This document shows, piece after piece, positions 2,721-6,125 of a stretch of 64,000 bases of DNA. The notes beneath the pieces were generated by a model. It was not told where the DNA came from. It saw only the letters and a program-made list of their open reading frames with translations, and ran no database searches. The first letter of the stretch is position 1. Each line of letters begins with the position of its first letter. Origin of the DNA: Dictyostelium discoideum (Eukaryota); assembly GCA_000004695.1 (NCBI GenBank), contig CM000152.2, positions 1,376,001-1,440,000 on the forward strand. Direction: 5' to 3'. The position numbers were made by a program, and so were the translations under genes.

Positions 2721-3465
2721 CCACAACAACATTTTAAATCAGAAATTGATAAAGCATTAGCAGATATTGATTCATGGGGAGTTATACCAACAGCACCACA
2801 AGCAGAAATTAAAAAACCAATAATACCACAAGAATTATTATCAAATATTCAAAAAGTTGAAAGTCCAACTGAAATGGTTGAAAATGCAACCTCAAAATTG
2901 GATGAAATGATTATGGAATATCATAATACTTCACCAACTTCTTCACCAACTAATACAAGAAAGAGTATTACACCTGTTCAACAACAACAACCAATTCAAC
3001 AACCAATTCAACAACCAATTCAACAACCAATTCAACAACCAATTCAACAACCAATTCAACAACAACAACAACCACCAATTCAACAAATTGATCAAGTTCA
3101 AAGAATGATTAATAATGAAACTAATAGAATTGGATCAATGATGATATTAGGACAAAACATATCATTACCAAATTGGATAGTACCACATGATCAAATTCAA
3201 GTTGGTAGTAGATTAGGATTAGGTAGTTTTGGTGATTGTTACACTGGTAATGCATTCTCAATACCAACGATTTTAAAGAAATTAAGAACTCAAAGATTTA
3301 CTGATCAATTTTTAGGTCAATTTAAAAATGAAGTTATGCAAATCAGAGAATTACAACATGAAAATCTTGTACCAGTTTCAGGTTGTTGTTTAGATAATAA
3401 TATCTATATCGTTCATCCATATTATGACGCAAGTAATTTACAAACATTATTATTTGAACAATCAC

Positions 3466-3542
<77 letters not shown>

Positions 3543-6125
3543 CATACAATCATCAGTAATGAATTCATTCATCGTGTTTCATTGGGTATTTCAAAAGCAA
3601 TGACTTATTTACATTCACATGATGTTGTACATCGTGCATTAAAATTGAATAATATTCTAATTGATCGTGTTAGTGGTAATGTGTTGGTACGTGATTATGG
3701 TTTCAATTTCGTAAAGGATGGTATTTTCCGTACTGGTCAACAAAGTTCACCTTATTTAGCACCAGAGTTATTCAATAGTAATTGTAACCAATATGACACA
3801 AATTCTGATCAATTTGGATTCGCAATGATTTTATTACAATTATTCACACGTTCACCATTGTTCCAAGATATTCATGTATCTCGTATAACTGATACAATCT
3901 TAAATGGTGTTCGTCCAGAGATACCCGATAATGTTCCATCAGTATTTAGTCGTTTAATTAAAGCATGTTGGAGTGCTGATTCATCAGCTAGACCATCATT
4001 CTTAACAATTTCAAAGATTTTATCACAACCATTTCAACGTATTTTCGCATTATCACCATCAACTACAATTACAAAACCAATTGTTTCAACTGGTAATACT
4101 ACAATTGATAGCAGTAGCAGTAGCAGTGGTAGTGGTAGTAGTAGTGTAGTTGGTTCAGTTAATAGTACAACTATACCACCAGTAAATAATAGTAATACTG
4201 GTAGTACTGGTAGTACAAGTGCAACAGTTAAACATCAATTTAGTGAAACTGGTGAATTAAATAGAAAGATGATTTTAGTATTAGAACGTATTGTTTCAAT
4301 GTTATCAACAGCAGCAGCATCAGCATCAACATCAACAATATCAACTGATTCAATAGATTCAATTAAACGTGCACTTAAAGCATTAGAGAATTTAAGTTCA
4401 CCAGAGAATCATTCATCAATGGTTGGTATTGGATTAATGAGATCATTATGTTTTATTGGTACTATTCATTTAGCAGAAATTGATGAACAATTATTACGTG
4501 TAATTTATTCTCTATCAACTAATGAACAACTATCAAATGAATTCATATTAGCAGGTGGTTTCACACCATTATCACAATGGGTATCATCTTCATCATCATC
4601 ATCAACAAGTGCAAACATTTCATTATTAGCAATTAAATTATTAACAGTATTAGCTGATGAACAACATTTACATCATGTAAGATTAACTGGTATTTTATCA
4701 AGTTTAACTCAACAATTTGTAAATTATACAAGTAATAATCAAAATGGTGGTGGTGGTAGTGGTGGAGGTGTAATTAATGAAACTATTATTTTACAATCAG
4801 TTGGTGCAATGTCACGTATTCTATTGAATCAAGATAATCAAAATCAATTCATTGAAGAGGGTGGTGTATCATCATTATTGAAAATGTTATTAAATTCTGG
4901 TAATAGTTTATCAATGAGAGCATTGTTAGCATTGTGTTGTTTAATCTCAAATCAAAATTGTAAATCACAATTACACAATGCTGGTATCATACCAAAGCTT
5001 ATGGAATTATTAAGTTCACCTCAAAAACTTTTAAGATTACATTCATTAAAAGTAATTGAAACAATGTCAAAAGATATTGAATTTAGAAAATTATTAATTC
5101 AAGATAATTGTTTATCATTATTAGTTAATTTATTATTAAATTCTTATAATGGTACTAATACTGGTATTGGTAACAATACTACTGGTAATAATAATGACAG
5201 TCAAGAATCAATTTGTTCAATTTTATCATGTATCGGTTCATTATTAAAGAATCAAATTGCATTAGAATCATTTTATCAAAGTAATGGTGTTGATGTTTTA
5301 ATTAAACTTATTGGTTATAATCAACAAATTGAAATTTTAGAATCATTATTCCCAGTGTATTGTTTATTAATTAATCATGAACAATCACGTTTGAAATTAG
5401 TACCAACTATTAATCAATTGGTTGAGATCTTGTCAAATTCAACACTAAAAGAATCAATTATAATTTCAATTTTGAAATGTTTAACATTATTCTCGAGTCA
5501 TAGCTCTTGTATTGAATTCATTGAGCAGAGTATGTCAGTTTCAATAGTTTCAACACTACTCATTCGTAATGAGAATAATTATGAAATTAAAATCCATTCA
5601 CTCAGATTCGTAAGTTCCCTCGCAAAGGTTAATAACAAATTGGCTGTCAATATCCATATGATGGGTATCCTGCAAACACTAGTCAACAATCTTTATGACA
5701 AGAATTCCATGATCAAGGATGAGGCAATATCAACCATCTCTTGGTTAGTAAGCTCTCAAGAATGTAGATCCATTTTCTTACAAAAGAATGTTTTACCAAT
5801 GTTATTCGATTTCCTTTCAACTAGAAATGTTGATATCATGGAGAGATTGATTTGGGCAATCTCTTTCTTTGCTCTAGATGATTCTGCTCAGTCCTTAATG
5901 AGAGACAATCAACAATGTATTCAATTCATCGTCAATTGTTTAGATAGACATGAAGAGGTTTTCAAAACACTATCAATTAAAACCATTTTAATCTTATCTC
6001 AAAAACAAATTAATCATCAAGCTTTAAAAAGAGTTGGTGTAGATTTCCAATTGCAAGTTTTATCTTCTTCTTCAAACAGATCAATTCAATTAGCTTCTAA
6101 AAAGATTTTATCTTTATTAAGTTAA
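167..6125 (+). CDS. LRR / protein-kinase-like (predicted pseudokinase) / armadillo-repeat protein. Proposed 2 exons 167..357 and 506..6125
   Basis: The 1848-codon ORF 579..6125 stays open in frame upstream to an AG at 504-505. The 64-aa ORF 167..361 (MSLKGS...) joins it in frame through a GTGATG donor at 358 and a poly-T intron 358..505, giving ..GIYLLEK|K|LNLSSNSLIEV... LxxLxLxxNxL leucine-rich repeats (LSGNRLT, LDLSSNSI) are followed by an S/T/P/Q/N linker. The kinase fold has glycine loop GLGSFGDCY, catalytic loop HRALKLNN (Asp to Ala), DYG, APE and a 39-Asn insert. The C-terminus has ARM/HEAT-like repeats. Confidence 0.75.

Follow-up and report, generated by a model that had tools for sequence, protein, structure and literature searches.

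The stretch of DNA analysed here, hereafter the window, comprises 64,000 nucleotides (nt) of the Dictyostelium discoideum genome (assembly GCA_000004695.1, contig CM000152.2, positions 1,376,001 to 1,440,000, forward strand), and near its beginning lies a gene that we identify, from its sequence, as the published D. discoideum DDB0230124, of the TKL group and the ARMK family. The encoded protein presents, in this order, leucine-rich repeats (LRRs), a low-complexity linker, a TKL-type kinase-like domain and armadillo repeats. In the kinase-like domain, the residues for ATP and Mg are intact and the catalytic base is missing, an ancient state maintained by selection; we consider that the domain is probably a nucleotide-binding pseudokinase module, with a probability of about 0.72. 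It should be said from the start that the Asp-to-Ala change and the predicted-inactive call for this exact protein are already known, as both were published in 2006 (Goldberg et al. 2006, PLoS Genet 2:e38, PMC1420674).

The domain and its motifs are placed as follows. Residue numbers are counted from nt 579, where an open reading frame (ORF) of 1848 amino acids (aa) begins, and 88 has to be added to obtain the numbering of the spliced 1936-aa protein.

3195..4031, + strand: TKL-type protein-kinase-like domain, predicted pseudokinase (Pfam, phmmer, AlphaFold, Foldseek).
3216..3233, + strand: glycine-rich loop GLGSFG, within GLGSFGDCY (aa 880-888, nt 3216-3242).
3276..3278, + strand: beta3 Lys (aa 900), equivalent of K72 of PKA, in the motif TILK; aligned to the Lys of B-Raf VAVK; TILK is listed in PMC1420674, Table S2.
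3330..3332, + strand: alphaC Glu (aa 918), equivalent of E91 of PKA, in FKNEV; aligned to FKNEV of B-Raf.
3630..3653, + strand: catalytic loop HRALKLNN (aa 1018-1025), with the Ala codon GCA at 3636-3638 and the Asn kept at 3651-3653.
3693..3701, + strand: DYG (aa 1039-1041), equivalent of DFG, with the Mg-binding Asp kept.
3759..3767, + strand: APE (aa 1061-1063), end of the activation segment, unvaried within the family.

Two Pfam profiles match this region. PK_Tyr_Ser-Thr (PF07714) scored 119.6 bits (E-value 1.9e-34, cut-off 23.1) and was aligned from position 1 to position 257 of its 258, and Pkinase (PF00069) scored 108.2 bits (E-value 6e-31, cut-off 31.7). Judged by these profiles, TKL-like membership in the kinase superfamily stands far above chance. 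The nearest PDB sequences found by phmmer were B-Raf and CTR1 (E about 2e-22), with which FKNEV, H-R-x-L-K-x-N-N and APE line up residue by residue. In addition, an AlphaFold model of the domain, built on the family alignment, reached a pLDDT (predicted local distance difference test score) of 84 and a pTM (predicted template modelling score) of 0.84, and its best Foldseek matches were the kinase domains of Abl, EGFR and B-Raf, with template modelling (TM) scores of about 0.75-0.8. The model contains a short helix immediately after DYG, and several of the top matches are inactive-state structures; in a model, both features are no more than a hint.

In the phmmer alignment with PDB sequences, 'vvHRALKLNNIL' of the window protein faces 'iiHRDLKSNNIF' of B-Raf, leaving Ala in the catalytic-base column, and when PKA and B-Raf were aligned with the family by MAFFT the columns came out alike, with Ala at the position of D166 of PKA. 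No other Asp can be placed at the catalytic-base position in the Pfam, phmmer or MAFFT alignments. The glycine loop, the beta3 Lys, the alphaC Glu, the catalytic-loop Asn, the Asp of DYG and APE are all retained, so that of the catalytic residues only the base Asp is gone. The initial annotation, made from the sequence of the window, had described a predicted pseudokinase that keeps GLGSFGDCY, a candidate Lys in ILKK, DYG and APE, and in which the HRD Asp is replaced by Ala; this description holds throughout, the first K of ILKK being the one that aligns with the beta3 Lys of B-Raf. The sequence criterion usually applied to pseudokinases (Goldberg 2006, Manning 2002) is the loss of at least one of the PKA residues K72, D166 and D184. 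Here the D166 equivalent is Ala and the equivalents of K72 and D184 are present, which supports, as a prediction, that the domain is a pseudokinase by the standard criterion. The kinome study, in which predicted inactivity was defined by loss of K72, D166 or D184, lists DDB0230124 as TKL, ARMK, predicted 'i', with 'HRALKLNN' and the remark 'lacks D166' (Goldberg et al. 2006, PMC1420674 Table S2). Furthermore, the second ARMK member, the paralogue DDB0230038, has HRSLHPKN and is also without D166 (PMC1420674 Table S2); we compared this paralogue through its listed motifs alone (IVMK, HRSLHPKN and DYG).

Relatives of the protein were collected by an exhaustive phmmer search of representative proteins with the kinase and ARM region; their catalytic loops were read by motif scan, and the column of the base was assigned by MAFFT. 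They are the following.

D. purpureum (P0007): catalytic loop HRALKPNN.
Polysphondylium violaceum (P0008): catalytic loop HRALKPSN.
Tieghemostelium lacteum (P0009): catalytic loop HRALKPNN.
A dictyostelid from EukProt (P0010): catalytic loop HRSLKPNN.
Cavenderia fasciculata (P0011): catalytic loop HRTLKPSN.
Heterostelium album (P0012): catalytic loop HGTLSPSN.
Acytostelium subglobosum (P0020, split gene model P0020 + P0016): catalytic loop HRSLSPAN.
Protostelium nocturnum, homologue (P0098): catalytic loop HRSLKPKN.
A GC-rich relative (P0018): catalytic loop HRTLHSKN.

The position of the base is occupied by Ala, Ser or Thr in all nine relatives (seven dictyostelids, Protostelium and P0018) and by Asp in none, an outcome that agrees with the loss proposed for the D. 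discoideum protein. Another homologue search was far less productive: with the kinase domain it returned nothing at E<=1e-20, and with the kinase and ARM region it returned six distant kinases only; the 8000 candidates scored in it were probably sequences sharing low-complexity words. It should be noted that the Acytostelium orthologue appears as two neighbouring gene models, one for the kinase part (XP_012750468.1, P0020) and one for the ARM part (XP_012750467.1, P0016), with consecutive locus tags on one contig; this division probably arose in annotation.

In the family alignment of 10 sequences, the first and third glycines of the glycine loop, the beta3 Lys (K37 in the numbering of the alignment), the Asn of the catalytic loop, the DFG Asp (D176) and APE (A198, P199, E200) are invariant, and at least 90% of the sequences have the second glycine of the loop. 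The alphaC position is Glu or Asp in most orthologues, the Arg of HRD is retained in most family members, and the Gly of DFG has become Ala in five relatives (DYA or DFA). Conservation was gauged by amino-acid identity per domain rather than by the ratio of nonsynonymous to synonymous substitution rates (dN/dS); synonymous sites between these species are expected to be saturated. Identity to D. purpureum is 79% in the LRR region, 77% in the kinase-like domain, 68% in the ARM region and 52% in the linker, and over six full-length orthologues the corresponding ranges are 79-49%, 77-46%, 68-39% and 52-26%. There are 58 invariant columns in the kinase-like domain across seven species. Because the identity of this domain equals or exceeds that of the ARM region and nearly reaches that of the LRRs, while the linker is much lower, these comparisons indicate that the kinase-like domain is under purifying selection and is not decaying.

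All full-length orthologues, as well as Protostelium and P0018, show the LRR, kinase and ARM architecture. Beyond them, the protein KAL6057077.1 of Balamuthia mandrillaris (P0022) is collinear with the window protein, with 40% identity in the LRR region (E 1.6e-40) and 25% identity over about 1000 aa of the kinase and ARM region (E 2.6e-72), and it retains the catalytic Asp and DFG (HLDLKSKN ... DFG). The existence of collinear homologues in Protostelium nocturnum and Balamuthia mandrillaris argues that the architecture is older than Dictyostelia. ARMK was described as one of six Dictyostelium-specific TKL families (Goldberg et al. 2006, PMC1420674), and the homologues outside Dictyostelia slightly extend that description. 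With the few taxa available, the alignments would be most simply explained by a loss of the Asp in the lineage that gave rise to Protostelium and the dictyostelids. More doubtful, in our opinion, is the wider history in which an old amoebozoan LRR-TKL-ARM family, with the Asp still present in Balamuthia, lost it once in the eumycetozoans (Protostelium and all Dictyostelia), in which the Lys, the Asn and the Asp of DFG have nevertheless persisted over hundreds of millions of years.

What could such a domain do? From its intact ATP- and Mg-binding residues it is predicted to bind nucleotide, phosphate transfer would no longer proceed at a useful rate, and the domain may serve as a conformational or docking module joining the partners of the LRR and ARM domains, in a manner comparable to ILK, HER3 and KSR-RAF. 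The replacement of the catalytic Asp by Ala in PKA-type kinases lowers kcat 100- to 1000-fold, and ILK, which has Ala at the position of the catalytic base, binds ATP without hydrolysis. The initial annotation had suggested a scaffold rather than an enzyme, and we infer the same from the sequence. Several points weigh against this proposal. No functional study, biochemical or genetic, of DDB0230124 or of ARMK was found in the literature searched, and inactivity is a prediction from sequence; the strict conservation of the Lys, the Asn and the DFG Asp is equally expected of an enzyme that uses ATP; some proteins without the catalytic Asp, such as HER3, retain weak activity; and the partners of the LRR and ARM domains are putative.

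These points lead to the most serious alternative, a weakly active or atypical kinase that would transfer phosphate without a base, or by means of a substitute group, and would be an enzyme targeted by its LRR and ARM domains and not a pure scaffold. The glycine loop, Lys, Asn, DFG Asp and APE that do not vary in the family, the Arg of HRD in most members and the strong constraint on the domain all fit this view, and PKA-type mutants of the catalytic Asp keep less than 1% of the activity, while HER3, with Asn at that position, weakly autophosphorylates. However, the residue at the position of the base varies between Ala, Ser and Thr, which are all unable to serve as a base, and the change of the DFG Gly to Ala in five relatives suggests a relaxed constraint on the dynamics of the activation loop. 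As for a substitute group, no relocated acidic residue is conserved family-wide in the alignment: the Asp that follows the glycine loop (GDC[YF]) was considered as a relocated catalytic residue and rejected as a family-wide feature, as it is missing in Acytostelium, Protostelium and P0018. For these reasons we regard an active enzyme as unlikely.

Two other explanations concern the gene itself. The long low-complexity tracts and the microsatellite within the kinase-like domain could be taken as signs of a decaying pseudogene, of which the lost Asp would be a symptom. This is very improbable, given a frame of 1936 codons that is unbroken, with a clean intron, and three domains that are all conserved across Dictyostelia, in orthologues that retain the full architecture; moreover, in-frame Asn and Gln tracts are frequent in the coding ORFs across the window. 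The Ala could also come from an error in sequencing or assembly, or be peculiar to the sequenced strain, and so hide a true HRD; the initial annotation had raised the possibility of a miscall, and no evidence in its favour was found. This idea is effectively refuted: the Ala is real, because GCA lies two substitutions away from GAT or GAC, because the independently published protein carries the identical motif, and because the nine relatives show Ala, Ser or Thr. Since every major dictyostelid group examined keeps a non-acidic residue at this position, the change is neither a mistake in the data nor a chance event of recent date.

The Asp-to-Ala change has little weight as a discovery, since it was published in 2006 together with the predicted-inactive call, and its value is practical; the gene belongs to a genetically tractable organism. 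The Balamuthia homologue, with the Asp and the same architecture, offers a comparison for the role of a pseudokinase with an intact ATP site. If the wider amoebozoan history described above is true, the family would provide a natural active and inactive pair with which an ATP-dependent conformational switch could be tested against base-independent catalysis.

The gene is located on the + strand and consists of two exons, spliced in frame to give the 1936-aa product:

167..357, + strand: exon 1, with the ATG at 167, encoding MSLKGSLKLPAAPKDKV...; the D. purpureum orthologue is 79% identical over aa 1-250.
358..505, + strand: intron, from the GT donor at 358 to the last base of the AG acceptor at 505, AT-rich and with a poly-T tract.
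506..6125, + strand: exon 2, with the stop codon at 6123-6125, from the ORF 579..6125 and the splice model.

Of the in-frame splice combinations, only that at 358-505 both extends the LRR motif (LEKLNLSSNSLIEV) and agrees with the published protein. The identity of the gene rests on the N-terminus of the spliced product (MSLKGSLKLPAAPKDKV...LEKLNLSSNSLIEV...), which is identical to the sequence of DDB0230124 in PMC1420674, Table S2, and on TILK, HRALKLNN and DYG, which are the motifs in the row of DDB0230124 in the same table. In the protein collection looked up, no exact counterpart of the 1936-aa product was found. The window as a whole is very AT-rich, with 15-31% GC across 2-kb windows.

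The regions that flank the kinase-like domain are the following:

507..1004, + strand: leucine-rich repeat domain, aa ~65-230 of the full protein (Pfam).
1065..3149, + strand: low-complexity linker rich in Ser, Thr, Pro and Gln, with no Pfam domain and 26-52% identity to the orthologues.
2985..3086, + strand: 12-nt tandem repeat CAACAACCAATT, 8.5 copies, encoding (QQPI)n, in the poorly conserved linker just upstream of the kinase-like domain.
3468..3542, + strand: (AAT)25 microsatellite, a pure repeat encoding Asn25 in the alphaD-alphaE loop, disordered in the model.
4305..6122, + strand: C-terminal armadillo-repeat region (Pfam and phmmer).

The N-terminal LRRs and the C-terminal armadillo repeats that had been proposed at the outset both scored above the Pfam cut-offs. 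LRR_4 (E 5.6e-13, 49.1 bits), LRR_8 (E 2.7e-12, 46.7 bits) and LRR_9 (E 7.1e-10, 39.2 bits) all passed, as did Arm (PF00514), with 34.3 bits against a cut-off of 20.6; the matches to ARM_ARMC5 and ARM_PUB were below threshold. The ARM region also matched designed armadillo proteins (E 6e-13), importin-alpha and Vac8 in a phmmer search of the PDB. The protein can therefore be counted among the LRR proteins, the armadillo proteins and the TKL/ARMK family. The Pfam scan of the 1848-aa ORF found neither Roc nor COR even at E<=1, which bears out the earlier statement that this is not a Roco kinase and leaves the protein outside the Roco/LRRK group. The linker is roughly 700 aa long and disordered.

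An insert of 39 Asn residues had also been placed in the hinge between the lobes. The Asn tract exists, but it is 25 residues long, by the count of (AAT)25, and both the alignment with B-Raf and the AlphaFold model locate it after the hinge, in the C-lobe, between the helices alphaD and alphaE. In the model, pLDDT falls below 50 over residues 102-126, which correspond to the tract. The tract has no counterpart in any of the nine aligned relatives; because all of them are without it, Asn25 is a recent, species-specific in-frame expansion tolerated by the conserved fold, and microsatellites of this kind occur throughout the window.

Other features were observed elsewhere in the window:

13664-15685, + strand: XPB/ERCC3-type helicase.
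16137-18101, + strand: FNIP-repeat protein.
18852-21080, - strand: PARP with PADR1, WGR, regulatory and catalytic domains.
28749-30926, - strand: ORF of 725 aa with partial, sub-threshold matches to ABC1 and Pkinase (residues ~430-500; Pkinase with 25.9 bits against 31.7).
55187-55259, - strand: single tRNA-Lys gene, anticodon UUU.
55004-55089: 41-nt tandem duplication, about 100 nt from the tRNA-Lys gene.

The ORF at 28749-30926 contains long TTTGAA and TAT repeats and may be another divergent kinase-like gene. Between 44 and 46 kb there is a strong negative GC skew (-0.55), at the place of long repeats of the (CAA)n and CAACCACAT types (region 44000-47300). These are ordinary coding repeats of the poly-Gln type and no separate element.

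Among known systems, ILK resembles the window protein in its TKL-type fold, in the Ala at the position of the base, in the presence of a flanking repeat domain and in the role of an ATP-binding, non-catalytic adaptor, which ILK performs and which is only proposed for the window protein. However, ILK has N-terminal ankyrin repeats, no longer has the Asn of the catalytic loop and shows a degenerate DFG; the window protein has LRR and ARM domains and keeps both the Asn and the Asp of DYG. Orthology with ILK was considered and rejected on these grounds: the Pfam scan of the ORF gave no Ank match, the Asn and the DFG Asp are retained, and the nearest PDB sequences are those of B-Raf and CTR1, so the protein does not fall in the ILK family. 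ULK4 and Fused/STK36 also combine a kinase-like domain with a long armadillo/HEAT solenoid, and ULK4 is a pseudokinase; in these proteins, however, the kinase domain is N-terminal and of the ULK family, there are no LRRs, and ULK4 is without the Lys and the DFG Asp, not the HRD Asp. B-Raf and CTR1 provide the closest solved sequences and are among the best structural matches, and KSR is their pseudokinase relative, but Raf and CTR1 carry HRD, are active and have other flanking domains, and Dictyostelium is without RAF orthologues (Goldberg et al. 2006, PMC1420674).

The Roco kinases (LRRK2, and in Dictyostelium GbpC, Pats1 and Roco4) share with the window protein a large, multidomain organization with LRRs and a TKL kinase, and armadillo repeats are found in LRRK2. 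They differ in the order of the domains, which in Roco proteins is ARM-ANK-LRR-Roc-COR-kinase and here is LRR-kinase-ARM, without Roc or COR; furthermore, most Roco kinases retain the HRD Asp, with only roco10 flagged as inactive (Goldberg et al. 2006, PMC1420674). The system to which the window protein truly corresponds is the ARMK family of Dictyostelium TKL kinases, with its two members DDB0230124 and DDB0230038 (Goldberg et al. 2006, PLoS Genet 2:e38), of which, judged by its sequence, it is the first.

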